Part shown: positions 31,245 to 44,684 of the stretch, in pieces | Layout: each line of letters starts with the position of its first letter | Position numbering within the stretch: the stretch's first letter is position 1 | Source of the DNA: Rubripirellula sp. | GTDB lineage: Bacteria > Planctomycetota > Planctomycetia > Pirellulales > Pirellulaceae | Assembly (NCBI GenBank): GCA_965216875.1 | Contig: OZ244207.1 | Location: 3,104,001-3,168,000 of the forward strand | Length of the DNA: 64,000 nt | Direction of reading: 5' to 3' | Notes under the pieces: generated by a model | What the model saw: the letters and a program-made list of their open reading frames with translations, nothing else | What the model was told of the DNA's origin: nothing | Databases searched by the model: none | Position numbers and translations under genes: made by a program

Positions 31245-31493
31245 TTGGCGACTCCCCGATTCGCGGCAATGGAAAAGCGTCACGTAGCCGCGACGAAACG
31301 TAATCCAATCCGCGACTCACTCTCTTATTTGACTCTATGCATTGTCGCGTGTGTGGCCAAATGGAAGGCCGGCGAAATCGCTGCTCGAGCGAGGCGTTTG
31401 AACTCGGTTGCATGACGCTTGCCCCCAATTCGAGTTCGTGATTCTCGACGCATGGGTCGGCAACAGGACCGCAGAATTGGGGGATTCGCGCAA

Positions 31494-31504
31494 TGTGCTA
31501 TAAT
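31494..31504 (+). promoter_or_regulatory. Extended -10 promoter element
   Basis: TGTGCTATAAT matches TRTGnTATAAT, about 45 bp upstream of the ATG at 31550. Confidence 0.55.
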
Positions 31505-31549
31505 GAGTTGGCCGAGTTCCCTCCATCGTTTTCAAACGAGACTCTTCAG

Positions 31550-32494
31550 ATGATTCGATTCCGTCATGTCGCCAGCGTCGGTTTACTGATCATGTTTGGC
31601 GCATCGTGGCTATTGGCTGACGAAAAGCGTGCGCCCGCCCCGAAATTCAACGACGCGCAACTCGACGGCATCTTTTTTGAAGATCTCGATGCTGCATTTC
31701 GCGGCAACGCCAAACCTTCGTTGTCAGCGATTCGGTCCAGTGCGGCCGCCACGACGGTTGCGGCAACGACCTCGAAAGCAGCGACCAATGAATCAGCAAC
31801 AAACGGTGTTTGGACGAAGCTGATCACACCCGCTTCGATCGAAGACGAAATCAAACGGCTCAAGCTCGAGTTCGACGGGCTGATCACCACGCCTGGTGCA
31901 TTCAACAGCGGCGGCTACATCGAAGCTCGCGTCGACCTCACCGCGCTGGCCATGATGTTCGCCGTGGTCCAAGAACATGACGGGGAAGTCCGCTGGAAGA
32001 AACAGGCCCCCGCCGCGCGAGACCTGTTGGCGAGAACAGCCTTCAATTGCAAAGCGGGATCGACCCAGGTTTACAACGAAGCCAAACAACGCAAAGGCGA
32101 CCTGCAAGATCTGATCTCAGGTGGCGGCATCTCGGCTCGCGATGTCGAAGAGGAAAACGATTGGGGCATGATCGTCGACCGCTCGCCGTTGATGGAGTAT
32201 GCCGAACGCCTGATCGAATCGCTTGAAGATCACAGCCGTGACACCAACACGGTCAAGGCGAACCTCGATGAAGTTCGTCGCGAGGCCGAATCACTTTCGG
32301 TGTTTGGGGAAGTGCTCACGCGTGAAGGGCTCGACGAAGCTGACAACGAAGACTATGTCAAACTTAGCCTTCACATGGTCGAAGCGTCCAAAGGTGTCTC
32401 AGCAGCATTGACGCGAAACGACATCGACGCGGTTCGCAAAGAAGTTGCCAACATTCGCCAACGCTGCGACACCTGTCACAACGAGTTCCGCTAG
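31550..32494 (+). CDS. Exported helical cytochrome c (class II / c'-like, C-terminal heme)
   Basis: Signal peptide, helical body, terminal CDTCHNEFR. Confidence 0.8.
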   Translation: MIRFRHVASVGLLIMFGASWLLADEKRAPAPKFNDAQLDGIFFEDLDAAFRGNAKPSLSAIRSSAAATTVAATTSKAATNESATNGVWTKLITPASIEDEIKRLKLEFDGLITTPGAFNSGGYIEARVDLTALAMMFAVVQEHDGEVRWKKQAPAARDLLARTAFNCKAGSTQVYNEAKQRKGDLQDLISGGGISARDVEEENDWGMIVDRSPLMEYAERLIESLEDHSRDTNTVKANLDEVRREAESLSVFGEVLTREGLDEADNEDYVKLSLHMVEASKGVSAALTRNDIDAVRKEVANIRQRCDTCHNEFR

Positions 32495-32572: not shown

Positions 32573-35026
32573 TCAACGGCTGACCAATTGCTTGAGCTGG
32601 TCACCGGTCATTCGGTGCGCAGCATCATGCGGGCAAGCGTGCACGCAGCTTGGCCCACCGGCGTCGCGGCACAAATCGCAGGTTGTCGCCCGCTGTTGAA
32701 CCACAGCGCGACCACCCGAGTCTTTGCTCTTGAAACCGTGCATGTTGATGTTGCCGTAGGGGCATTGGTTGGCGCACAACCCGCAACCAATGCAATAGTC
32801 TTCGATTTCGATCTCTTTTGAATCACCATCGCGGTGAATGGCGTCCACAGGACATCCGACCAGACAAAGTGGGTCAAGACACGACCGGCAACTACTTGCG
32901 ACCAGAAACTTGTCGAACCGGAGTCCTTCGCGAATCAATCGCGTCACTCCATCCTGATGGGCGTCCGCGCACGCCTTGGTGCATTCGTCGCAACGGGTAC
33001 AGCGTTCCAAGTCGAGCACAAGCAGGCTTTGCGCCATGTACAACCCTTGCTCGAGGAAGCTGTCGGCATCGATGGCCTGCAATCGCGACTCGGCCTCGCG
33101 ATCACTCTTCAACAACTTCTTCGCATTATCGAGCAACGGCTTGCGTATCTGCGGGTACCGTTCAAGCAACTCCCGAAAATCATTGCCGTCGATTCGGTAG
33201 AGCTCGACGTGGTCGAGTGCCGAACAGGTCGCCGTCCGCCGACCGCGATTCGCCTCGCCCAAGACATCTTCGTTCAACTCATCGGTCAAACCACTGAGCA
33301 ATCCGATTTCCCCAAACCCGCTGCCTGGGCCCAGGTAGTTCAAAACACGTTCATCGCGCCCGTATTTCTGCGTCACCTTTACCGACCCCAGTTTGTTGAC
33401 GTAATAGGCGTCGGCAAGGTCGCCCTGTTCAAAGATCGGTTGCAGGGGATCGACCAAGACATAGGAAGCTCGATCAGCCAGAAAGGCTGCGGCGTCCTCC
33501 TTCATCTGCTGGTCAAGTGATTCGAACAGTGGCAGATTGCCAAGCTGGCCCTTCAGCGCGCGTTCGCGGTAAAGCTTGTCAAGGATCTCGCGGCTGACTT
33601 GATTGCGTTGCAACATGTACAGCACGTTGCGGCGAATCTCGAGCACGTGTGACTCTTTGGTGGCCCTCACCGTGGCCGAGCGAACACCACGATTCATACA
33701 GGTCATTTCGCCAAGGATCACGTCGTCCTTGTTTCTCAAAATCCGGTTACCTGGTTCGTAGGCGATTTCTCCCACGTCGCCAAGCGTTGGCTTTCGACTA
33801 CTCCGCGACGTTTCTCTGACGGTATCAATGCGTCCAAAGAGTCGTCCCAGCAGACCGCCTGAACGCCGGTTTTTCAGACTGCCGGTCTCGACGTTGAAAT
33901 CGATCTCAAATTCACCATCGAGGATGATGAAAGCGGTGGCACCGTATTCGCCTTGCCGGCAAAGTTCCTGGCCCGGTTTGAGCATCCTCCGGACAACCGC
34001 AGCACCGTTGAATTGCAAAAACTTGTAGGGAATGTCCTTGAACAAATCGTATTTGATCAATTCATCAGCAGTAACAATGTCGCCATCTTTGCGTTCGTCC
34101 TTTAACTCCTTACGAACGCGATCCACCTGAGTCTCGATGAAGTCCTTTTGGAACTCCAAGGCGCCCGTTGGGCAACTAACGGCACATTCACCACACGAAA
34201 CACAAGTGCTTTCCTCCATCGAGTTGTTCAGGTCAAACACGATGCGAGAATCGTAGCCCTTGCCACCACGCCCAATGACGTTGTTGCCCTTGATCCAGTT
34301 GCAACCACGTTGGCAACGACCGCACAGAATGCATTGGTCATGATCAACGTGGATCATATGACTCGATTCATCTTGCCCACGAGTCACCGGCAAAGGACTG
34401 AACCGCTTGGGATCTGCGTCCAACCGCTCGGCAACTTTCACCAGTTCATTGCCCGGCGTCACCGTTGCCTGATCGGGACCATGGTCGGCAATCAGCAGTT
34501 CGACCACGGTACGACTTGCATTCTTGACCCGACCCGCGGCAGCTTCGTCGCTACTGTTGATCGTGTGCACGACCATGCCGTCTTTGACGGCTTGTTTGCA
34601 CGAGGGGACCAGCTTCTTGCGAATCGCGCCACGACTCTCTTCGACCAACTCCACCACACAGACTCGGCAGACGCCGACAGGTGGCAAATGTTCGCGATGA
34701 CAAAGCGCTGGAATCGGGTGCTGCTCGCCCGGTTTCGTGACGAACGCCTTGTACGCTGCGTCATAGATCGTGGTTGGCCGCGGAATCGGTTTCCCGTCGG
34801 CATCTTGCTTGATATTGCCCTGGGAATCGCACTCGGGCACCGCTTGGTTGACGACGACTTGAACACCATCAATCACCAGCGTGACCGTTTTCTCCAACTC
34901 ATCCGCGGTCGCTTTTTCGACGCGAATCAGTTGTCCATCGACGTCACGAGCGAACAGACCTTCGTCTTCTGGAAGGACGGAATAGTCGATATCGAAATTG
35001 ATCGCATCATCAGGGACGTTACTCAT
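32573..35026 (-). CDS. Fe-S protein: NuoG/HoxU-like N-terminus, two cNMP-binding domains, four-cluster ferredoxin C-terminus
   Basis: IPALC...CRVC...PSC (2Fe-2S); CILCGRCQRGC and CVSCGECAVSCP; GEMTC...RSAT and FGEIGLL...RTAT; CTRCDECTKAC, CRSCLDPLCLVGCP, CIGCGLCANQCP and CDLC...CVHACP. Start set at MSNVPD. Confidence 0.9.
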   Translation of the reverse strand: MSNVPDDAINFDIDYSVLPEDEGLFARDVDGQLIRVEKATADELEKTVTLVIDGVQVVVNQAVPECDSQGNIKQDADGKPIPRPTTIYDAAYKAFVTKPGEQHPIPALCHREHLPPVGVCRVCVVELVEESRGAIRKKLVPSCKQAVKDGMVVHTINSSDEAAAGRVKNASRTVVELLIADHGPDQATVTPGNELVKVAERLDADPKRFSPLPVTRGQDESSHMIHVDHDQCILCGRCQRGCNWIKGNNVIGRGGKGYDSRIVFDLNNSMEESTCVSCGECAVSCPTGALEFQKDFIETQVDRVRKELKDERKDGDIVTADELIKYDLFKDIPYKFLQFNGAAVVRRMLKPGQELCRQGEYGATAFIILDGEFEIDFNVETGSLKNRRSGGLLGRLFGRIDTVRETSRSSRKPTLGDVGEIAYEPGNRILRNKDDVILGEMTCMNRGVRSATVRATKESHVLEIRRNVLYMLQRNQVSREILDKLYRERALKGQLGNLPLFESLDQQMKEDAAAFLADRASYVLVDPLQPIFEQGDLADAYYVNKLGSVKVTQKYGRDERVLNYLGPGSGFGEIGLLSGLTDELNEDVLGEANRGRRTATCSALDHVELYRIDGNDFRELLERYPQIRKPLLDNAKKLLKSDREAESRLQAIDADSFLEQGLYMAQSLLVLDLERCTRCDECTKACADAHQDGVTRLIREGLRFDKFLVASSCRSCLDPLCLVGCPVDAIHRDGDSKEIEIEDYCIGCGLCANQCPYGNINMHGFKSKDSGGRAVVQQRATTCDLCRDAGGPSCVHACPHDAAHRMTGDQLKQLVSR

Positions 35027-35031
35027 TGATT

Positions 35032-36840
35032 TCACGCTCCTGTCGCTTTTGTGGTGCAAGCTTGGCGGGCAAGTTCCGGAAAGAACTTTAGGAAGCTGCT
35101 AAAGGGATTGCTCGCCACCGCGCCGAGGCCGCAGATGCTCGTACCGACCATCACTTGGCTCAACTGATCCGCGGTGCCGCCAAAGCCATCGAGTTCCTCG
35201 ACCGTGACATCGCCAGCCAACAAACGCTCGGCCATTTCCGTGATCTTTTGCGATCCGATTCGGCAGGGCACACACTTGCCGCACGATTCGTTGCGATAAA
35301 AGCGACTGTTTGCAACCGCTTCGGCAAGCACGTCGCAGCCCTCGCCGTAAACCACTATCCCGGCACCGACCATGTAACCGACGGCTCGCGAAACATTGAT
35401 GTCCAAGGGTAGATCACGAACTGAGATTTCCGTCACGCCCTCGGGGACGTTCTTTTCGACAAAGCGCCGACTCAAGTATTTGACCGGGATCTTATTTGGA
35501 AGCAGCCCACCGGAAGGCCCACTCAATGCGACCGCCACGATCTCCTTTCCCCCTGCCATGCCGCCACAATGATCGTCGATCAGTTGACCAAGCGTGATCC
35601 CTGTCTCCACTTCGTAAACACCTGGTTTTTCCAGGTCGCCGCTGATGGAAAAAAGGCGTTTGCCCTTCATCTTTGGCTCGCTGCCTTTGGCAAGCATCGC
35701 GTCATGCTTCCCCTGTTCGGCGAACCATTTGCCTCCATCGCGAAGAATCGAAGGAGCCCAGGCAAAGGTCTCGACGTTCGACAGAAGGGTTGGCAAATTG
35801 TTCAATCCGTTGGTCATCAGCTCGGGTGGGCGGATGCGTGGCTCGGCCCGCTTGTCTTCCATCGCTTCAATCAAAGCCGTTTGTTCGCCACAGATGTAGC
35901 CGCCGGGACTCTCGTAGACTTCGAGTTTGAATGATCGCCCGCTTCCAAAAATATTGGGTCCGCAGGCACCCAACTCCTCGGCGCGTTTGATCTCCTCGCG
36001 ACACTTCTCGATTTGTTCGGGGTATTCGTGTCGGACGTAGATCCATCCTTCGTCAGCGCCGGTGACGAGCGCGGCTAGAATCATGCCCTCGATGGTTGTA
36101 TGTGGCGCTGCGAGAAGAATATCGCGGTCCTTGAACGTCCCTGGCTCGCTCTCGTCGGCATTGCAAACGACGTACTTCTTGCCCGACTTCGATTGGGCTC
36201 GCAGGACATCGCCCCACTTTCGATAAGCGCGTCCACCAGCGCCACCCATTCCGAGCAGATTCGCGTACTCGAGCGCCGACAGGACGGTATCGGAGTCCAT
36301 GCCATCTTCGACAAACTTCTTGACCACTTCATAGGTAGCAGTGCCCTGGTAGGTGTCGAGTGCCCACTGCCCCACCTGTGTTTTCGCGTGTTCGGCGTCC
36401 GTATCATGAGCGGGCTCTTGTCCATCAAGCATCGCGGCGACCGCCTTCTGACAACGACCAACATCAGTCTCAGCCAGAAGACGTTCATGCTCGGTGACCC
36501 CTTCGGCATAAACCATGGCAGCAGGTGCCCGATCGCATCTGCCCAAACAAGAAACACCACAGACTTGAACTTGATCGCCGTAGTTCTCGGTGGCCCATTG
36601 CGTCAACTCTTCCGTCGCCTTCACACTTCCTTTCAAGTGACAACTCATGTCACGGCAAACGTGTACGGTCGCCTTGGGTGGTGGATCCGTGCGGAAATGA
36701 GGAAAAAACGAAACGAGCGCCTCCACACGATGCATTGGCACATCAAGCTGATCCGCGACCAGCTTCATGTCAGCTGAAGTGAGAAAACCGCCACGTTCTT
36801 TCTGGCGTTTCTTCAATGCAGGAATGATGACGAGACTCAT
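35032..36840 (-). CDS. NuoE-NuoF fusion flavoprotein (NAD(H)/FMN-binding diaphorase module)
   Basis: VCRDMSC...SCLGRCDRAP (thioredoxin-like 2Fe-2S); GMGGAG, CNADESEPGTFKDR, YICGEQTAL and ESCGKCVPCRIG...ICGLG (4Fe-4S). Confidence 0.92.
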   Translation of the reverse strand: MSLVIIPALKKRQKERGGFLTSADMKLVADQLDVPMHRVEALVSFFPHFRTDPPPKATVHVCRDMSCHLKGSVKATEELTQWATENYGDQVQVCGVSCLGRCDRAPAAMVYAEGVTEHERLLAETDVGRCQKAVAAMLDGQEPAHDTDAEHAKTQVGQWALDTYQGTATYEVVKKFVEDGMDSDTVLSALEYANLLGMGGAGGRAYRKWGDVLRAQSKSGKKYVVCNADESEPGTFKDRDILLAAPHTTIEGMILAALVTGADEGWIYVRHEYPEQIEKCREEIKRAEELGACGPNIFGSGRSFKLEVYESPGGYICGEQTALIEAMEDKRAEPRIRPPELMTNGLNNLPTLLSNVETFAWAPSILRDGGKWFAEQGKHDAMLAKGSEPKMKGKRLFSISGDLEKPGVYEVETGITLGQLIDDHCGGMAGGKEIVAVALSGPSGGLLPNKIPVKYLSRRFVEKNVPEGVTEISVRDLPLDINVSRAVGYMVGAGIVVYGEGCDVLAEAVANSRFYRNESCGKCVPCRIGSQKITEMAERLLAGDVTVEELDGFGGTADQLSQVMVGTSICGLGAVASNPFSSFLKFFPELARQACTTKATGA

Positions 36841-36865: not shown

Positions 36866-38275
36866 CTAGGGTTTTAGGGCGTCGTTAAGGAAGGTCTTCA
36901 ACTGCGCGCCAATCGCGGGATCAAAACGACCTGGCGAGTTCACCCCCGAGTCAAATTGCAGCAGCGGTCGCGATTGATTCAAGAATCGCCTATACGGTTC
37001 ATCCTTTCCCGCGGAAAACTCACGCAGCGCGGCTTCGGCATCAAGGTAAAACACAGCAGCTTCATACCAATCACTCGGGGGAGGCGTTTGCTGTAAGCGG
37101 TCGAGCTCCACCTTTGCATCAGTGCCGCCGTTTTGAGCAATCGCAATCCCTTCGGCACGAACCGTATTGGCAAGCTTGATACCGCTGGCAGCCATCCGAT
37201 CGGCATCGACCGCATTGGGAGCAAGCGCTTTCAAGGTCGTCTCATTGAACTCTCGCTGACCAACGGTATGCCACGAATTCCAAATCGGCAGGCCGCTACT
37301 GACCTGCAAGGCTGACGGTTTGGCATCGGGCGGCAAACGGTACTGTTCCATCGACAACGACTGATGGCATGCAAAGCAATCGTAGTCGGCAAGTTCGGGC
37401 CACGGCACGTTGCCCCCCTTTGCGTAGTCTGCCGCGCGCTGAGCTGCAAGCTTGGCAGCAGCGGCAAGCGTGATCGCGCGACCAGCCTGTCGTACTTGGA
37501 CAGGCGACTTCGAAAACGCGAACGGGCCCTTATTCGGGCTCCAGTGCTTCGGCAACGCCTCGTTGTAGGTCCCCAGTTCGAACCGCAGCACGGGATGCCC
37601 CGCCGCAATCATGTCGTGATTCATATCGCGAATCAAACCGTCAGCATCCCGAGATCCGACGTGACACCGCACGCAACGCGAACTACGCCCGACGATCGTT
37701 TCCGTATCAAGCATTCCTACAGAAATCTTGAAATTGCTGTCTTTGCTGTGGGCGGCGATCGGGTCCGCATCATTCGAGGTTGCGAATCCTGGAAGGTAGT
37801 GCTGGTGCAGCCATTGGTCGGCGCGGCCGTGACACGATTGGCACGAAACACCGCCAGCAAGCTGCAACGAATCGATTCGTTCGCCGCTTGGTTGACAATC
37901 CAAGACCTGGGCCGTCGCGTGACAGCTCAAGCAACGACGCCGGAGCAGATTGTCGCGATCGAGCAGCCAGGCACCGTCACCCGCCGCTTGCTTCGCAGCG
38001 ATTTTCGGATCGAGCGCAAACACGATCTGTGTAGACAAGTCGCTGTAAAGGGTGATGCCGGCATTTGCATGAGGATCGCGGTCCGCCCAAACCGTCCAAG
38101 ACGATGCCCAACTTTCACCACGGCCGATCGCCCCACCATGGCAAGTCGATGCGGCACAACTCGCACGTTCGATAACGGAGGGCGAAACAATGTCGGTCGT
38201 CTGACTGCGAACGCGTGCCGGAAACACGATCGCAATGGCAACAGCGATCAACCAAACTCGACAAGATGTGTTCAT
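36866..38275 (-). CDS. Pentaheme cytochrome c, paralog A
   Basis: Signal peptide from MNTSCRVWL. Heme motifs CAASTCH, CLSCH, CQSCH, CVRCH, CFACH. ATGA overlap with the upstream gene. Confidence 0.88.
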   Translation of the reverse strand: MNTSCRVWLIAVAIAIVFPARVRSQTTDIVSPSVIERASCAASTCHGGAIGRGESWASSWTVWADRDPHANAGITLYSDLSTQIVFALDPKIAAKQAAGDGAWLLDRDNLLRRRCLSCHATAQVLDCQPSGERIDSLQLAGGVSCQSCHGRADQWLHQHYLPGFATSNDADPIAAHSKDSNFKISVGMLDTETIVGRSSRCVRCHVGSRDADGLIRDMNHDMIAAGHPVLRFELGTYNEALPKHWSPNKGPFAFSKSPVQVRQAGRAITLAAAAKLAAQRAADYAKGGNVPWPELADYDCFACHQSLSMEQYRLPPDAKPSALQVSSGLPIWNSWHTVGQREFNETTLKALAPNAVDADRMAASGIKLANTVRAEGIAIAQNGGTDAKVELDRLQQTPPPSDWYEAAVFYLDAEAALREFSAGKDEPYRRFLNQSRPLLQFDSGVNSPGRFDPAIGAQLKTFLNDALKP

Positions 38276-39753
38276 TGGTCCGCCCCCAAAGTCGTCGAGG
38301 GCGTGTTGTGATAGCGATGGCAAAGAACGCAGCGATCCGAAGCCCACTGGGTGTGTCCGCCAAAGGTCGCCGACTCGCTCGACGAAGCGGTTGTTCCAGC
38401 AGGGCGATGGCAACCAGTGCACGTCTCGATGCCGCCAATGGCAACCACAGTGTGATCCTTGGCGGTCAACTTCGGATCCGATTCCACCACCGCACCGTGG
38501 CAGTGCAGACAATCAACCTTCTGGTGCGAAGCATGATCGAATTGACCATTGGTTAACCAGCGCGAGGGGATCATCTTTCCGCGCAGTTTCGTCGCCGCGA
38601 TGGCTTTGTCGGTGGTGACATCATCAACGTGGCACTTGAAACACTGCTGCTGGAGGGTCGCAATCGCGGTTGATTTTTCAAAGGCGTCCAACTGCTCAAT
38701 CGTCAACGATCCCGATCGCTCGGCGCTCGTTCCGATCCCCGTTGGCCCCGAGCTCGGTTGTTCACGCTTCTTGATTGCGAGTCGCGCGTCCAGCCATTTA
38801 CCAACCTCATCCCAGGCAGCGGCGTGAGGAATTGAAGCGTTCTCGGCCGTTTGCCCAGCCGGGTTGAAATGGTGGCATGCCGAGCAATGCTGTTCGAAAT
38901 TGATCGGCGTCATGTAGCGGCCAGCCTTGTCGACGGCACCAATTTCCTCATCAGCCACTCCGCTCGACTGGTGGCAATCCTTGCATGCAAGTTGAACGAA
39001 TCCGTTTTCATTTGTCGCGTACCGTCCTTGAAACTCATCCGGCAATCGATCCGCTGTCATCGCAACCTTGCCAGCGGCACCATACGCGGATTGTCCCGGC
39101 AAGAGGTGTTGGGCATGATCGAACTTGATTCGCCCAGGATCACCGGCAAACAGCGAGGCAAATTCGCTGTGTCCCTGCTTGGAAAATGCGACGATGCTTT
39201 GACGTTTTTGGTCCTTGAGCACGGTCTGGCTCGGATCAAGACAAACCGAATCGATGCGACGATGGCAATCGACGCACCGCTCGTTTTGCACATCCGACAG
39301 GTCGAAGAGTCTTCCCTGGTGATCGGCATGGCAAAGGGCACAGTTTTCATCAGCCAATTTCCAATCACCCGCTAGCTGATGATTGTGGTGACCTGCGATC
39401 GGATGCTCACCGTTGTGACAATGCGTGCACTTCGAAAACGTCGCTGCGACCGACTTCTCGGCGGAAACATCAACATAGGGCGGCAACTTGAGTTCGCGGA
39501 TCGAATCGTTGGCAATCGGTACGAATGGCGTGTGACATGCTTCGCAGTTCGATTCGATCTCGGCGTGGCCCGCCGCCACCGGTCCGGGCATCGCAACGAT
39601 GCTGTTGGAATTTGAGTAGGCAAAGACGGCAATGCCAAACAGACAAGCCGTGATGGCCAACGCAACCTTCAGACGCGCCAGTGAGTCGCGCTGTCGAAAG
39701 TAGTCCAGCTCGATTCGCTGGGCTCGTTGCTTTCCGGTTTCACCCTGAGACAT
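38272..39753 (-). CDS. Membrane-anchored decaheme cytochrome c
   Basis: N-terminal TM and ten CxxCH motifs: CEACH, CTHCH, CALCH, CVDCH, CKDCH, CSACH, CFKCH, CLHCH, CTGCH, CVLCH. Confidence 0.92.
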   Translation of the reverse strand: MSQGETGKQRAQRIELDYFRQRDSLARLKVALAITACLFGIAVFAYSNSNSIVAMPGPVAAGHAEIESNCEACHTPFVPIANDSIRELKLPPYVDVSAEKSVAATFSKCTHCHNGEHPIAGHHNHQLAGDWKLADENCALCHADHQGRLFDLSDVQNERCVDCHRRIDSVCLDPSQTVLKDQKRQSIVAFSKQGHSEFASLFAGDPGRIKFDHAQHLLPGQSAYGAAGKVAMTADRLPDEFQGRYATNENGFVQLACKDCHQSSGVADEEIGAVDKAGRYMTPINFEQHCSACHHFNPAGQTAENASIPHAAAWDEVGKWLDARLAIKKREQPSSGPTGIGTSAERSGSLTIEQLDAFEKSTAIATLQQQCFKCHVDDVTTDKAIAATKLRGKMIPSRWLTNGQFDHASHQKVDCLHCHGAVVESDPKLTAKDHTVVAIGGIETCTGCHRPAGTTASSSESATFGGHTQWASDRCVLCHRYHNTPSTTLGADQ

Positions 39754-39760
39754 CGTGCTA

Positions 39761-40744
39761 TCACCAATACTTGAGGGCAGTGATGATATGTGCGATCAAC
39801 AATCCGGTGACGGCAACGGAAAGGCCGATGTGGATTGGCAACCATCCATGCAAAACTCGATGAACCGATTTTTGCGTGTCGAACTGGCGACGCTGGTGAC
39901 AAAGCTGTTCAAGCATGTCGATTGCCTCGGCGCTGGAGTCGGTGCAAGCCTCGCGCAAATTACGAAACCAATCGACCGCTTGCTGCGGTTGTGAAACGGG
40001 CGACTCGGCCTTCGCACCTTCCAATAAGTAAGGCTCGATTTCGTCAAAAGCGTCCCACAACGGCTTGGCATCTTCGGGGGACTTTTGCACGCGTCGTGAT
40101 TGAGCGCTACGACCAATCGTTCGACCAACGTTGCGTTGGGCGCCAATGATGACGGGCCCCGTCCCGACCAACTCTAGCTCAGGATTGATTTCTCCGGCAT
40201 CACTTGGGCGAGGCCCACAAACCGCAATCAACATCTGCCGAGCATCGCCCGCGGTCACCTGCGATACATGATCGATCTGGCCATGAATCGTCTCGGAGGG
40301 CAAATGCCGCAGCATCCAACGGGGAACAATATTCTGAACGATCCATCCATAGAGCCCACTGAGGATCGTTAACACAAAAAGAAACATGAGCGTATTGGGA
40401 AGCCAACCGCTCCAGACCAATCCCCAATGAGCAACCGCCAAGAAAAACGATGCAATCCCAAACCAGATATGTGCCGCCATCCAGTATTTCGCTGGACCAA
40501 ACATCTTGATCCTGCGGAACCACTTCTTGGGGCTCAGCAGCATCTCGAAAAAGATGATCAAACCGGCGGCAATCCCGCAGGACAGGCCTGCTGCGCTGCT
40601 TCCGCTAAGCGGATGCCCGGCCGAAATCGACGCTTTGACGTACCACCCCACCAGCACCAACGTGAGCACGCCCGCAGGGAGCGCCGTCCGAAAATGAAGC
40701 CGTGAAGATTGCGTCAACAGCACCGTAGCACCAACCAGTTGCAT
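39761..40744 (-). CDS. Polytopic membrane protein with four TM histidines, putative diheme cytochrome b
   Basis: WMAAHIWFG...VAHWG and WLPIHIGLS...IAHII, each His pair 13 residues apart, flanking a soluble insert. Confidence 0.7.
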   Translation of the reverse strand: MQLVGATVLLTQSSRLHFRTALPAGVLTLVLVGWYVKASISAGHPLSGSSAAGLSCGIAAGLIIFFEMLLSPKKWFRRIKMFGPAKYWMAAHIWFGIASFFLAVAHWGLVWSGWLPNTLMFLFVLTILSGLYGWIVQNIVPRWMLRHLPSETIHGQIDHVSQVTAGDARQMLIAVCGPRPSDAGEINPELELVGTGPVIIGAQRNVGRTIGRSAQSRRVQKSPEDAKPLWDAFDEIEPYLLEGAKAESPVSQPQQAVDWFRNLREACTDSSAEAIDMLEQLCHQRRQFDTQKSVHRVLHGWLPIHIGLSVAVTGLLIAHIITALKYW

Positions 40745-41151
40745 TCAGGTCCATTCCGGTGTCGCACAAGCCCGTGCCAGCCGGACACGTCGGAAGACCC
40801 CATGTTGCGATGCATTGATGGTACCACTTGAAGGAGCGCCCATGTTTAGTGAGTGAGGTCGTTCGAGTCAATTCGCCTCGACCGCCGACCATTGAATCCT
40901 TCACGAAACTCACAATCGCGATGGCGACAAGGCAGGTTCACGGCCTACAATCCTCATCGCAGCCTACAATCCTTATGGCAATCGCCGATTGCAGGTTCAC
41001 TATCGAGGGTTGCATTCACTCGGGCAGTGCCGAGACGCTTGTCAAAACACGCCTCAAAGTTGACCGCGCAAATGATGACGATACCGACTATTGTGGGGCA
41101 ATCTCGTCCACCTCAATTCAGTCGACTTACCAAAACACGCCGAGTGGTGTG

Positions 41152-42987
41152 ATGCTTGCCTTGCCAGCCAATCTGTATCGCTGTACAGGCGTCTTAGGCG
41201 TTGTCGCCTTGGTTTGTTTCGTTGCTCCCGCTATTGGTGGGATTTCGACTGCATCGGGCCAACAACTTCTACCTGTCCCCTCGCCAGAACCAGACGCAGC
41301 GCAGTCTGATCCGTTCACTGACGATCGACCAACCGATACCTCTACCAGCGGCCATCAAGGTCTCGATCATCTCCACGGCACATTGCTGCGAAACGATTTT
41401 TCGCTCAAGGGCGCTCAGTCCTGCGCCGTCTCGTCTTGCCATGGTGGTCCGCGACCGGGAATTGCCCAACCGACCGCGCGTCGCGGCTCAGAATTCCAGC
41501 TCTGGCTCGAAAACGACCCACACGCACGATCGTGGCGAACCTTTTGCGGCGACGAAAGCGTTCAAATGATGCGTCGGTTGAGAATCATCGACCAAGACAA
41601 CGTCGTGCTCGATCGGGCAGGTTTCGACAATTGCTTGGCTTGCCACAACACGGCCAAACGCTATGACGAGCCGAGAACCACCGGCAACCTTCGCGAAGGG
41701 GTCGGATGCGAAGCCTGTCATGGTCCCGCTGAACAATGGGAATCCTCGCACGTCCAATACAACTGGTCGCGAGAATCGGCACACGAGCAAGGGTTCGTCA
41801 ATAACGACGACCTCTTCACGCGAGCCCGCATGTGCGCCTCCTGTCACGTCGGTGACCGAGACCGCGACATGAACCACGACATCATCGCCGCTGGCCACCC
41901 GACGTTGCGCTATGAATTGGCGACCTACCACAGTTGGCAACCGAAACACTGGCGAGACGCCGAAGCCGATAACAAAGAACGCTACGAGGCTCAACTTTGG
42001 CTTGCCGGACAAGTGGCATCGGCCGACGCGTCGCTGTCGCTTCTTGAAACACGTGCTCGGCGCGGACACTCCGCGAGCCAGTGGCCAGAGTTTGCCGCGT
42101 ATGACTGCGCATCCTGCCACCACAATCTTGGCCTTGGCAACGCACGCGGCAGCGAGCTTCCTGGGCAACGACAACGACCCGCAACCGCAATCTATTCACA
42201 ATGGAATGATTCCGGATTGAGATGGCTGTTGAAACACCGCGTCACAAGCGGCAAAGCAACCGAAAACGACCATCGACTTCTCGACGCGCTGGTATCGGTA
42301 CAAACGGCTATGGAACAGCCGCCGCGGCCCAACGCAGACTCGGTTGCCGACGCCTCAAAGCACGCTCGAAAAGAACTTGCCGCTTGGTTTGCGGCCGAGG
42401 GCGGTGGGGAGCGCCAGCGATTTGACAGCGACCGACTTGGAATGCTCGTGGCATCAGCAGCAAGCGACCCCGATACATTCTTAACGTGGGAGTCAGCGGC
42501 GCAGTTCTACCTGGCGTCAATCGCGGCGCGAGAAAGCTGGCCCGGCGGTATCGACGGACCGCTTCGAGAAACGGCGGACCAATTGCAATACGGTCTCCAG
42601 TACCCACAGATGATCGACATTAGCCGTTATGCGAAGCGAGCGTCCGCCAAAGGTCCGCAGCTTAGCCGACACGAGATCGCGCGGCTGTCTATCCAACTTG
42701 CAAGGTTCCTCGGTCCCGTCGCTGAAAACGCAGCCGATCACCCGCCGTCCGATAGCCGAGATCCGGCCAATGTTCGCGACAAACTCGATGCGTTGCTCGA
42801 GCGGATTCGCAAACAACAGCAGACAGAGCGCAAGAACCGCGGCGAACAAACACCACCCGCGGTGAAACCGAGCGACAACGCCCCCAAAGAGCCGCCTGAA
42901 AAACCACGGCAATCGGTCGAGGACCTTCGCAAAGCGCTCGAATCGTTACAATCTGACTCTACCGACGACGGCAACAATCAACCTTGA
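41152..42987 (+). CDS. Pentaheme cytochrome c, paralog B
   Basis: Signal-like N-terminus. Heme motifs CAVSSCH, CLACH, CEACH, CASCH, CASCH. Start trimmed from 40828. Confidence 0.88.
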   Translation: MLALPANLYRCTGVLGVVALVCFVAPAIGGISTASGQQLLPVPSPEPDAAQSDPFTDDRPTDTSTSGHQGLDHLHGTLLRNDFSLKGAQSCAVSSCHGGPRPGIAQPTARRGSEFQLWLENDPHARSWRTFCGDESVQMMRRLRIIDQDNVVLDRAGFDNCLACHNTAKRYDEPRTTGNLREGVGCEACHGPAEQWESSHVQYNWSRESAHEQGFVNNDDLFTRARMCASCHVGDRDRDMNHDIIAAGHPTLRYELATYHSWQPKHWRDAEADNKERYEAQLWLAGQVASADASLSLLETRARRGHSASQWPEFAAYDCASCHHNLGLGNARGSELPGQRQRPATAIYSQWNDSGLRWLLKHRVTSGKATENDHRLLDALVSVQTAMEQPPRPNADSVADASKHARKELAAWFAAEGGGERQRFDSDRLGMLVASAASDPDTFLTWESAAQFYLASIAARESWPGGIDGPLRETADQLQYGLQYPQMIDISRYAKRASAKGPQLSRHEIARLSIQLARFLGPVAENAADHPPSDSRDPANVRDKLDALLERIRKQQQTERKNRGEQTPPAVKPSDNAPKEPPEKPRQSVEDLRKALESLQSDSTDDGNNQP

Positions 42988-44684
42988 ACGTAAGATTCGC
43001 CGAGATGTCACTCTGCCTCTCCAAACGCACCGTCATCTACCGCAACTTGATTCTTTGGATTGCAAGTACTGCGGCTTTCGTCTGTGCGCCTAACGTCGTC
43101 GCGCAGGACGCGTCGAACGACCGAGCCTATGACGCTGTCTTCCAAACCTGGCGAGACCACGCAGGGGTCCAGGCCTGCGACCGCTGCCACAATGGGCAGA
43201 GCGACTTTGCCAAAATCGATACCAGCTACAGCCGCCAGGACGAGCTGAAGTTCTGGATCACGAAAGACAAACATGCGATTGCTCGTCGCCGCGTCGAACC
43301 ACTCTCTAAAGACGAAGTACTCGAGCAGGCAACAAAACTTGCCAATCAATATGGTGATGCTCAAGTCGTTTCGGGCTGGCTCGGCGCGAGCAACGTTTTG
43401 AGCAAACGCATCAAAGAAAAGTTGCGCTACAACGACGATCAATTCCGTGACAATTGCTTGACCTGCCATGGCGGGTATCGACACGACGTCGAATCGGACA
43501 AGGCAGAGTTTGCTGCGGATCAACCAGGCATTTCATGCAACTATTGCCACCAGGTCGGAACGACCAACCAGTGGGTCCTTGATCACAACGCCACCACGCC
43601 CGAGGCCAAAGCCAAATGGCGAGGAAGCACTGCCAATCAAAAAGAGTCTTTGGGGATGCGAGATTTGGTGACGACCTCCCGTCAGGCCAGTCTCTGTTTC
43701 GATTGCCACGTTGGAAATCGAAAACAAAACCAATTCGTCACTCACGAAATGTATGCTGCCGGGCATCCGCCATTGCCTTCGATTGAAGTGCAAACCTTCT
43801 GTGAGCAGATGCCTCAACATTGGCGATCCTTGTCGACCGTCCATGACGAATTGCCCGATGGCGAAAAGGATTCGTACTTTCGGTTGAACCTTCCGGGCGT
43901 TGATGCGCCCGACGACACCTATTGGAACACACGAAAACTCTTGGTCGGTGCGTTGGCGGCTCGTGCAAAAACGCTGCAACTTGTCATCGATTCGGCACAA
44001 TCGAATCAATGGGCTGACTATTCGCTGTACGACTGCGCCGCTTGCCACCACGAACTGAAAACCGAAAGCCACCGGCAACAACGTGGCTATCCGGCTGCTC
44101 CCGGTCGGCCTCGTCAACATGAGTGGCCAGACGCGTTGTTCCACATTGCGCTTTTCCTGGCCCAAGACGAACCAAACATCATGGAACTCGAGCGTACACT
44201 CGCAGCCCGATTCGGCGCTCAACCCTTTGGCCGAGCCGAAGACGTGTCGGCAGCGGCAGCGAATTTGAAAGCTGCAATCGATCGCGCCATCGAAAAGGCC
44301 GAATCAACTACGGTCGATTCCGATGTCGCTCTTCGAGTTCTTTCCGGCCTGGCACAGACTCCAACGGAAAAACTTTTCGCCTACGATTCGGCTCGCCAAG
44401 TCGTCTGGGCAATGCGAGTCGTTATCGCTGAACTTGAATCCAAAGAGGATGAGCTTTCACCCGAACTCAAACAGGTGCAAACCCTCGTGAAAGCACTGGA
44501 CCAGCCCACCACGACCGCTGGCAACACGGGAATCGCCGCAGTTCTGCCGGCCGGGCGCACGGCATTCATCTATCCCGATAGTTTGCGGAATGATCTGAAG
44601 CGTCGTGCGAACTTTGATTCGGACGAACTCGAAAAACGCCTCCGCGAAATCAACGAGCTCTTGGTTGACGTGATCAACCAATAA
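42984..44684 (+). CDS. Pentaheme cytochrome c, paralog C
   Basis: Signal peptide. Heme motifs CDRCH, CLTCH, CNYCH, CFDCH, CAACH. Shared HEMYAAGHP and PQHW motifs. Confidence 0.88.
   Translation: MNVRFAEMSLCLSKRTVIYRNLILWIASTAAFVCAPNVVAQDASNDRAYDAVFQTWRDHAGVQACDRCHNGQSDFAKIDTSYSRQDELKFWITKDKHAIARRRVEPLSKDEVLEQATKLANQYGDAQVVSGWLGASNVLSKRIKEKLRYNDDQFRDNCLTCHGGYRHDVESDKAEFAADQPGISCNYCHQVGTTNQWVLDHNATTPEAKAKWRGSTANQKESLGMRDLVTTSRQASLCFDCHVGNRKQNQFVTHEMYAAGHPPLPSIEVQTFCEQMPQHWRSLSTVHDELPDGEKDSYFRLNLPGVDAPDDTYWNTRKLLVGALAARAKTLQLVIDSAQSNQWADYSLYDCAACHHELKTESHRQQRGYPAAPGRPRQHEWPDALFHIALFLAQDEPNIMELERTLAARFGAQPFGRAEDVSAAAANLKAAIDRAIEKAESTTVDSDVALRVLSGLAQTPTEKLFAYDSARQVVWAMRVVIAELESKEDELSPELKQVQTLVKALDQPTTTAGNTGIAAVLPAGRTAFIYPDSLRNDLKRRANFDSDELEKRLREINELLVDVINQ

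Follow-up and report, generated by a model that had tools for sequence, protein, structure and literature searches.

An iron-sulfur protein with tandem cNMP domains in a NuoEF-linked multihaem cytochrome operon of Rubripirellula

The closest described systems to the one that we discuss here are ptd and PCC4, two published gene clusters whose function is hypothetical. In ptdABCDEFG, PtdE combines a cyclic nucleotide monophosphate-binding (cNMP) domain with 4Fe-4S clusters, PtdF is ferric-reductase-like, PtdG is a decahaem cytochrome, PtdD is a tetrahaem cytochrome, and PtdA is a pentahaem cytochrome that has a beta-sandwich at its C terminus (Elbon et al., bioRxiv 10.1101/2023.11.21.568154). 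In PCC4, a dihaem-b protein of the inner membrane has five helices, a WX3HX13H motif that occurs twice, and an SGXXG motif (He et al. 2017, PMC5566968). We analysed a window of 64,000 nucleotides from Rubripirellula sp., a member of the Planctomycetota (assembly GCA_965216875.1, contig OZ244207.1, positions 3,104,001 to 3,168,000), in which a minus-strand operon of five genes resembles both systems. The last gene of the operon (32573..35026) encodes P0001, a protein of 817 residues in which an N-terminal iron-sulfur (Fe-S) block (the N-block) is followed by two cNMP domains and then by a four-cluster ferredoxin.

Our best overall explanation, to which we give an even chance, is that P0001 would be the cytoplasmic connector of a gated transmembrane conduit, and that the operon would be a diaphorase-fed variant of ptd and PCC4. 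In bacteria, cyclic AMP (cAMP) controls respiration mainly via transcription factors, and in the literature that we searched, we found no electron-transfer protein that has been shown to be allosterically switched by a cyclic nucleotide. Nor did we find a form of these clusters that is fed by NuoEF, or a gate, in that literature, and the supplements of the ptd and PCC4 papers may list such forms. A real gate would add a new level to the control of redox flux and would offer bioelectronics a ready-made switchable part. If there is no gate, our results still sharpen the picture of ptd and PCC4. In either case, the P0001 system is real, conserved, and uncharacterised.

P0001 and its cNMP sites

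The open reading frame of P0001 runs on the minus strand from an ATG at 35026 to a stop codon that ends at 32573 (817 codons), with an AGGAG ribosome-binding site 10 nt 5' of the ATG. We dismissed an upstream TTG (35059) as the start because the ATG has the ribosome-binding site and fits the N termini of the homologues. Pfam finds Fer2_4 (residues 85-157), a Fer4_Nqo3-like stretch (residues 224-290, under the cut-off), two cNMP_binding stretches (PF00027, E = 3e-24), and Fer4 domains at the C terminus. In NCBIfam, the best matches of the N-terminal part are HydA of group A6, HoxU, and NuoG, and the C-terminal match is DmsB/HydN; all of these are far under the family cut-offs. No full-length family in Pfam or NCBIfam reaches its cut-off, and neither resource finds a domain of the molybdenum bis(pyranopterin guanine dinucleotide) (Mo-bisPGD) type or an H-cluster domain past residue 314.

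The N-block (34142..34774, minus strand; residues ~85-295) is of the NuoG/HoxU type and has motifs for one 2Fe-2S cluster (C109/120/123/143) and two 4Fe-4S clusters (C232/235/238/242 and C275/278/281/285). At the other end, the DmsB/HycB-type ferredoxin (32576..33049, minus strand; residues ~660-817) has 16 cysteines between residues 676 and 798, or enough for four 4Fe-4S clusters. None of these 28 cysteines is missing from more than one of the 120 best homologues (P0001 itself included), and the predicted number of clusters is 1 + 2 + 4 = 7. The His-ligated cluster with the motif HxxxCxxCx5C, which is found in NuoG and HydA, is absent from P0001 and from 177 of the 177 homologues that we checked. 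It is also lacking in some FdhA, including M. extorquens FdhA (7vw6, as aligned with P0001). In the alignment with 7t2r_A, too, P0001 does not have it.

An AlphaFold model of P0001 (from an alignment of 82 rows; mean predicted local distance difference test [pLDDT] 79, predicted template modelling score 0.68) has all four parts folded, with pLDDT of only ~57-80 in the ferredoxin. Using Foldseek, the modelled N-block matches the HydA/FdhA structures 7t2r_A, 8a6t_A, and 7vw6_A, and the middle of the protein matches the tandem cyclic nucleotide-binding (CNB) domains of PKA and PKG (E ~1e-15). The beta-roll, hinge, and C-helix of the CNB domain can all be identified in P0001 (from Pfam, the model, and the fold search), but the placement of the two domains relative to each other cannot be superposed on that in PKA or PKG (root-mean-square deviation [rmsd] 10-20 Å).

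Domain A (33539..34051, minus strand; residues ~326-496) has a canonical cassette: G439-E440, eight residues, and R449-S450. This is an exact match to the consensus for the CNB phosphate-binding cassette, Gly-Glu-x8-Arg, from PKA and CRP. An insertion of ~50 residues precedes the cassette and, by the secondary structure of the model, lies in the beta4-beta5 hairpin. Domain B (33074..33538, minus strand; residues ~497-651) retains the consensus residues (G572-E573 and R597-T598) with a 23-residue spacer after E573, and a poorly conserved insertion of 15 residues sits inside its phosphate-binding cassette. Its C-helix (residues 625-651) leads into the ferredoxin. The Ser or Thr that follows the cassette Arg does not discriminate cAMP from cyclic GMP (cGMP).

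The G, E, and R of site A are invariant in 120 of 120 close homologues. We also aligned diverse relatives (the best 150 of the 50%-identity cluster representatives returned), and among these, the set of Gly, Glu, and Arg is complete at site A in 126 of the 134 rows that cover it and at site B in 114 of 137. Across the 150 representatives, G439, E440, R449, G572, E573, and R597 all rank within the top 14 of the 255 columns of the cNMP region, where the median conservation is 46%. The spacer of site A is eight residues long in 132 of 134 rows; at site B, it is 10 residues or less in 48 of 137 rows and longer in the other 89. From these patterns, we think that the sites of P0001 probably bind a cyclic nucleotide. 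Binding is likely to be mostly at site A and not to be required in every lineage.

Three conserved cysteines (C443, at 33698-33700; C356; and C601) lie inside the cNMP domains. C443 is in the phosphate-binding helix of site A and is kept in 119 of 140 representatives. They may include a redox-sensitive site.

This architecture is not a chance arrangement, as it has many conserved homologues: the query and at least 119 other proteins share at least 52% identity, and nearly all of these matches span the full length. Among 200 genomes from the same family, 29 contain matches to P0001 at E ≤ 1e-60. The closest named record is from a Rubripirellula (82% identity), and close homologues are found in cultured genera including Rubripirellula, Novipirellula, Rhodopirellula, and Roseiconus.

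The conserved unit and its neighbours

The genes of the operon are closely spaced (5, 25, about -4, and 7 nt apart). Upstream of P0001, they encode a NuoE-NuoF fusion (NuoEF), a c554-like cytochrome, a decahaem cytochrome c, and an inner-membrane protein. We compared 62 loci: this one (L001), the 20 top matches from a search of the phylum, 28 of the 29 matching genomes of the family, 12 loci that match less well, and a paralogue in the genome itself. These were picked by score, and many are kin. The N-block is present in 37 loci and absent from 24, and one locus (L081) is cut at a contig end. In two of the 37 (L070 and L077, from metagenome-type genomes), a frame break divides the homologous gene.

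NuoEF is adjacent in 36 of the 37 N-block loci and in none of the 24 loci without an N-block (N-less loci). The exception, L032, is a second copy, and the other copy in the same genome (L033) has NuoEF. Conversely, an FNR-type flavin adenine dinucleotide (FAD)/NAD(P) reductase with a 2Fe-2S cluster is present in 6 of the 24 N-less loci and in none of the 37. So by gene content, this position is taken by one or the other of two unrelated NAD(P)H modules. The swap of one module for an unrelated one suggests that the cluster is linked to the cytoplasmic pool of pyridine nucleotides, and not to quinone alone as was first proposed. This link makes the direction of flow and the donor directly testable. 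In one relative, P0265 (1483 aa), NuoE, NuoF, the N-block, the cNMP domains, and the ferredoxin are fused in one chain.

The membrane protein, as found by a profile, is present in 49 of the 62 loci (28 of 37 with the N-block and 21 of 24 without). N-less forms often bear an FHA domain or a third cNMP domain. In a tree of the core (a quick, unrooted tree that leaves out L070, L077, and L081 as split or truncated), the canonical E proteins, of the type found in L089 and L091, form a separate clade with a Shimodaira-Hasegawa-like support value (SH-aLRT) of 100, and N-block and N-less forms interleave in its sister group. As judged from these loci, the conserved unit is the cNMP2-ferredoxin with the membrane protein and the decahaem, while the NAD(P)H module in front is exchangeable, and the N-block is a diaphorase adaptor that accompanies the adjacent NuoEF. 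Two other combinations are worth recording: P0250, a full-length homologue, has a C-terminal NUDIX domain, and FHA domains turn up more than once, on the Fe-S protein as well as on the decahaem (L051).

An earlier note on this DNA, made from the sequence alone, had anticipated most of the architecture. It read an N-terminal 2Fe-2S and two 4Fe-4S motif sets as in NuoG, FdhA, or HydA, for which the 12 cysteines bear it out; a C-terminal DmsB/HycB-type ferredoxin with four clusters, which agrees with the 16 conserved cysteines and the sequence match to DmsB/HydN; and hence seven clusters in two blocks, as we also find. It expected Fer2_4 and Fer4, a tandem of cNMP domains, and another Fer4, and Pfam recovers this set, if the match of Fer4_Nqo3-like under its cut-off is allowed. 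It was also correct that tandem cNMP domains lie at about 33130-34050 (residues ~326-650 of P0001), that both sites retain the phosphate-binding Gly-Glu and Arg (as do most relatives), and that each domain has an insertion. What we would revise is its description of the protein as a NuoG or HydA whose catalytic domain was replaced by cNMP domains, because the N-block is absent from 24 of the 61 classifiable loci while the cNMP2 and four-cluster ferredoxin unit is conserved. Judging by its sequence, P0001 is an Fe-S electron wire rather than a NuoG, FdhA, or HydA from which the catalytic domain has been lost.

NuoEF (602 aa; 35032..36840, minus strand) has a 2Fe-2S cluster, a site for flavin mononucleotide (FMN) and NAD(P)H, and one 4Fe-4S cluster. 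In bifurcating (Bfu) enzymes, the NuoF-type protein has the signatures AFM and Phe and extra clusters (PMC12018979). At the corresponding positions (mapped by spacing), NuoEF has TFK and Tyr315, and the extra C-terminal clusters are absent, so we rejected electron bifurcation by NuoEF. In NADH-selective enzymes, a Glu selects NADH over NADPH (PMC12018979); its position is occupied by Gln320 in NuoEF (again mapped by spacing), by Gln in 25 of 26 loci found by a motif search, and by Ala in the other one. T. kivui HydB has Ser at this position, and T. kivui cell extract reduces NADP+ better than NAD+ (PMC8578170). It is possible that NuoEF uses NADPH.

The inner-membrane protein (327 aa; 39761..40744, minus strand) is similar to the inner-membrane protein of PCC4 and to PtdF and is predicted to be a dihaem-b anchor. 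It has no match in Pfam. Its motifs are W88-x3-H92-x13-H106, S129-G-x-x-G133, and W301-x3-H305-x13-H319, and the four histidines are invariant in 70 of 70 aligned rows. When we compared its structure model (pLDDT 90) to known structures with VIA-align, STEAP4 ranked third (Z 10.4, rmsd 4.8, 158 aligned), after two designed bundles, and superoxide oxidase, cytochrome b561, and FdnI ranked under STEAP4. The second cluster that the Atlas gives for this protein is named ferric-reductase-like (score 0.94). We view these matches as suggestive, and only that, of a fold like those of ferric reductases and cytochromes b.

The decahaem (493 aa; 38272..39753, minus strand) is PtdG-like and has 10 CXXCH motifs and an N-terminal membrane anchor. 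The c554-like cytochrome of the operon (36866..38512, minus strand; true start probably near 38275) has four CXXCH motifs and one CX4CH and has weak homology to PtdD-like tetrahaems. Divergent from the operon, on the plus strand, are another c554-like cytochrome with four CXXCH and one CX4CH (40828..42987; true start probably ~100 codons in) and a c554-like pentahaem with five CXXCH (42984..44684). This divergent pair stays beside the operon in close relatives such as L001, L061, L063, and L064. In both c554-like tetrahaems, the extra CX4CH is close to the N terminus; it is possible that it is a fifth, atypical haem site, which could mark a catalytic centre. On the other side of the operon, and converging on it, is a gene for a 333-aa exported protein (31493-32494, plus strand) with a single, C-terminal CXXCH. 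It has a weak likeness to cytochrome c' (PF01322, under the cut-off) and was not next to the homologues that we inspected.

We also searched the rest of the genome, which is one contig and 99% complete. NuoEF is encoded by its sole NuoF-like gene, and there are no matches in the genome to the 49-kDa subunit of complex I (PF00346) or to FeFe-hydrogenase (PF02906). The genome's one NiFe hydrogenase (at about 3.02 Mb of C1) and its four molybdenum enzymes are each encoded in their own distant loci, so we rejected the idea of a catalytic partner subunit elsewhere in the genome. We also considered and rejected, as a trait of the family, a role in replacing a missing complex I, as 30 of the 37 carrier genomes that were searched have PF00346. 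The NiFe hydrogenase operon (C1:3019918-3024601), which we take to be of group 3b from its gene order, starts with a stand-alone gene for a cNMP domain (155 aa), directly followed by the gene for its 4Fe-4S subunit, and is a second instance in this genome of a cNMP domain next to an Fe-S wire.

A second trio, of the canonical type, is at C1:1739042-1744018 and encodes a 632-aa cNMP-ferredoxin, a membrane protein that has both of the WX3HX13H motifs, and a decahaem. PtdA- and PtdB-like genes are at C1:3378086-3382040 (with the true A-like gene at 3378086-3380200), and a PtdD-like gene is at C1:6376895-6377905. Together with the canonical trio, these scattered genes imply that the ptd set is dispersed over the chromosome; we found no clear orthologue of PtdC in the genome. 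The PtdB-like and other porin-like genes are 0.24 and 0.89 Mb from the operon. At C1:2248495-2254499, a decahaem of 1460 aa with LVIVD repeats is encoded with a 677-aa porin-like protein, which belongs to no Pfam family and whose neighbour in the Atlas is alginate export (0.95). In many relatives (L035, L041-L044, and L048), the cNMP-ferredoxin cluster has homologues of this pair next to it. The pair may be the outer part of that cluster.

A possible gated conduit and its rivals

From the genes that it contains, the operon probably encodes a conduit for electrons from NAD(P)H to the periplasm. First, NuoEF would oxidise NAD(P)H at its FMN, without bifurcation, and the N-block of P0001 would receive the electrons from the 4Fe-4S cluster of NuoEF, in the manner of HoxFU or FdhB/FdhA. 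Second, the electrons would move from the N-block to the C-terminal four-cluster ferredoxin. Third, the cNMP-ferredoxin half of P0001 would dock on the dihaem-b membrane protein, and the electrons would cross the membrane to the anchored decahaem, continue to the c554-like periplasmic cytochromes, and perhaps go onward to a porin-cytochrome pair that is encoded elsewhere. Finally, cAMP or cGMP, bound mainly at site A, would swing the C-helices and shift the ferredoxin relative to its donor or to the membrane protein, and this would set the flux.

We are less confident about the gate than about the conduit. That cNMP binding controls the flux of electrons has an even chance at best, and perhaps a little less. 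We are more tentative, and somewhat below even, about the specific proposal that a cyclic nucleotide directly switches a transmembrane chain from NAD(P)H (perhaps NADPH) through the dihaem membrane protein to the periplasmic multihaem cytochromes. As part of that proposal, and with the same reserve, the cNMP2-ferredoxin could serve as a movable gate, joined in evolution to at least two NAD(P)H modules that are unrelated (of the NuoEF/NuoG type and of the FNR type) and combined with FHA domains.

We favour outward flow because the transfer of electrons from NAD(P)H outwards is downhill both chemically and electrically and the operon does not encode a coupling pump (or any pump subunits). An ungated route of this kind would drain both reductant and membrane potential, which would be a rationale for a built-in switch. 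The simpler output would be a movement of the ferredoxin, which hangs on the C-helix of domain B. The output of CNB domains in general is a ligand-driven movement of the C-helix (PMC11630820).

We predicted the complex of residues 312-817 of P0001 with the membrane protein, and it scored 0.46, while the best control scored 0.00. The runs share at least 71% of contacts, and the pLDDT of the partner is at least 72. In the calibration, for which the job was different, 116 of 157 solved pairs and 2 of 215 mismatched pairs came up to the same mark, and scores of 0.60 or less included 18 of the 157 solved pairs and both of those mismatches. This is weak support for docking, and it shifts the odds little, because the gene context had already made the pairing likely.

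Genes for class III cyclase domains are found in 9 of the 62 loci, as compared to 0.75 expected from each genome's own count. In L032, a cyclase-FHA gene (L032:7864-8778) is directly upstream of the homologue. Of the nine hits, two are in the training set of the profile (and are confirmed by Pfam), five are in the Pfam listing, and two were found by the profile alone. At least one cyclase is present in 56 of 57 carrier genomes.

Several points weigh against the gated conduit. What the sequences show is a flavin entry point, an unbroken set of Fe-S ligands, four haem-type histidines in a membrane protein, haem motifs in exported proteins, and ligand-type residues in two CNB domains; the path of the electrons and its direction are inferred. 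No donor module, neither NuoEF nor the FNR-type reductase, is visible near 18 of the 24 N-less loci. The membrane protein is missing from 9 of the 37 N-block loci, and while five of these reach a contig end, the other four (L032, L038, L039, and L040) are full 20-kb stretches. Foldseek with the model of the membrane protein found nothing at E ≤ 0.001, and the fold matches described above are under Z ~13, the level that is meaningful for helical bundles. There is no porin gene among the open reading frames of the operon's cluster. As for the cyclases, the nine hits reduce to five families once kin are grouped, so a Poisson-type enrichment is overstated; two of the nine came from the training set; and there is no cyclase near the window's own locus, as the genome's two cyclases are far away. 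Site B is decaying in this clade: its Arg is substituted in 11 of 120 close homologues, and the site is intact in 62 of 77 representatives with the N-block. Also, among 125 representatives that cover both sites, 6 (P0244, P0258, P0262, P0264, P0277, and P0323) have neither cassette intact but keep all of the Fe-S ligands; a wire can thus be retained where canonical binding is lost.

Those six proteins also fit the rival explanation that survives best, in which the conduit is the same and the cNMP domains serve in assembly, membrane docking, or stability or as a scaffold, without switching flux on the time scale of catalysis. The insertions in site B vary among the relatives, up to ~40 residues and to more than 100 in two of them, and in the AlphaFold model, the insertion in domain A includes a short helix, both basic and amphipathic, that could bind the membrane. 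But the ligand-contacting Glu and Arg and, at site A, the interval of eight residues (in 132 of 134 rows) are conserved like structural glycines across clusters with less than 50% identity, and cyclase genes are enriched nearby. Overall, we consider this explanation to be unlikely.

Another explanation, which the earlier note had proposed, is that the ligand moves the N-block and the ferredoxin of one chain into or out of tunnelling range of each other and that this hinge is the function of the cNMP pair. The ~330 cNMP residues do stand between the two Fe-S blocks, and both blocks are complete in most of the full-length representatives. As a general function, though, the hinge does not survive the N-less forms: all 45 representatives that lack the N-block keep site A intact, 24 loci are N-less, and these forms interleave in the tree with those that have the block. 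The intact cNMP pairs in N-less forms imply a job for the pair that is independent of the N-block. We therefore see the hinge as improbable for the family. In the fused form, the two Fe-S blocks may move in this way, as a special case of the gated conduit.

It is more doubtful still that the conduit runs inwards, from outside donors such as Fe(II), Mn(II), or sulfur or nitrogen compounds through the cytochromes to quinone or NAD(P)+, with the Fe-S/cNMP protein as a regulated side branch. PCC4 is found in Fe(II) oxidisers, where inward flow to quinone via the same membrane protein has been hypothesised (PMC5566968). But the reduction of NAD(P)+ by c-type haems is uphill, the operon lacks pump subunits, the cluster lacks a porin, and its NuoF has no bifurcating signatures. 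Least of all do we believe that NuoEF and P0001 are a diaphorase module for a catalytic subunit elsewhere (of a hydrogenase, formate dehydrogenase, or complex I), with the cytochromes as a separate system: among solved structures, such modules are the closest to the N-block and NuoEF, four 20-kb N-block loci lack the membrane protein, and most carrier genomes (30 of 37) match PF00346, but this genome has neither PF00346 nor PF02906, its NiFe hydrogenase and four molybdenum enzymes are in their own distant loci, and the membrane protein is present in 28 of the 37 N-block loci.

Comparison with known systems

For the comparison with ptd, we used L089 and L091, chosen by their gene order, as stand-ins for the published sequences. 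Their order (pentahaem, porin-like, FNR-type reductase, tetrahaem, cNMP-ferredoxin, membrane protein, decahaem) is the published order of ptdABCDEFG. The E proteins of these loci are 28-32% identical to P0001 over ~470 residues (E ~1e-56), so the C-terminal 500 residues of P0001 are homologous to PtdE-like proteins, and the ferredoxin part is 44-49% identical to the canonical ones. The F proteins match the profile of our membrane protein (E = 4e-20 to 5e-22). The likeness to PtdG and PtdD is weak (E = 1e-3 to 1e-8). On the other hand, P0001 has an added block of 300 residues of the NuoG/HoxU type, and NuoEF stands in the place of the FAD/NAD(P) reductase PtdC, which is absent from 37 of 37 N-block loci. 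The operon also lacks a porin (PtdB), its gene order is different, and it has no PtdA orthologue: the pentahaem of the window does not match the A proteins of L089 and L091 at E ≤ 0.01. We note that the ptd paper counts two 4Fe-4S clusters in PtdE, where the cysteine pattern that we see gives four.

The likeness to subgroup II of PCC4 is, first, in the inner-membrane protein, with its two WX3HX13H motifs and SGXXG (PMC5566968). Also, PCC4 has periplasmic cytochromes with 4, 5, and 10 haems, and here the CXXCH counts are 4, 4, 5, and 10 (a likeness in count only). PCC4 includes an Fe-S gene and has been reported in Planctomycetes as well (PMC5566968). In PCC4, this Fe-S gene (pfam13247) is upstream of the gene for the inner-membrane protein, while here it is last, and PF13247 is under the cut-off (E = 7.6e-4). 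PCC4 clusters contain a porin, unlike this one, and He et al. propose inward flow to quinone (PMC5566968). The terms "cyclic nucleotide", "cAMP", and "Nuo" are absent from the main text of the PCC4 paper, and the text of its supplement has no cNMP term (PMC5566968).

The front half of the system has the block order of known diaphorase modules: HoxFU, the N-module of NuoEFG, FdhB/FdhA (7vw6/7e5z), and HydABC (7t2r, 8a6t) all have NuoE and NuoF followed by a block with a 2Fe-2S and two 4Fe-4S clusters. Unlike these modules, P0001 and NuoEF have no His-ligated cluster, Mo-bisPGD, H-cluster, NiFe partner, or bifurcation signatures, and the wire of P0001 runs on into cNMP domains and a DmsB-type ferredoxin.

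The ferredoxins DmsB, HycB, HydN, and NrfC bridge to a membrane anchor. P0001 shares their pattern of 16 cysteines and matches them in sequence, but its ferredoxin is cytoplasmic and fused behind cNMP domains, and the predicted anchor, a ferric-reductase-like protein with five helices, is not of the NrfD type.

Among proteins that respond to cyclic nucleotides, the regulatory subunit of PKA and PKG share the tandem CNB fold with its phosphate-binding cassette. The mycobacterial acetyltransferase Pat, which is switched by cAMP, has a weak NCBIfam match to residues 511-637 of P0001. The proposed output of P0001 is electron transfer, unlike that of PKA, PKG, the SthK channel, or Pat, and the placement of its CNB pair differs. 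With no porin, PtdC, or PtdA in the operon, we do not file it as a member of ptd or PCC4, but from its genes, it should work like ptd and PCC4 subgroup II.

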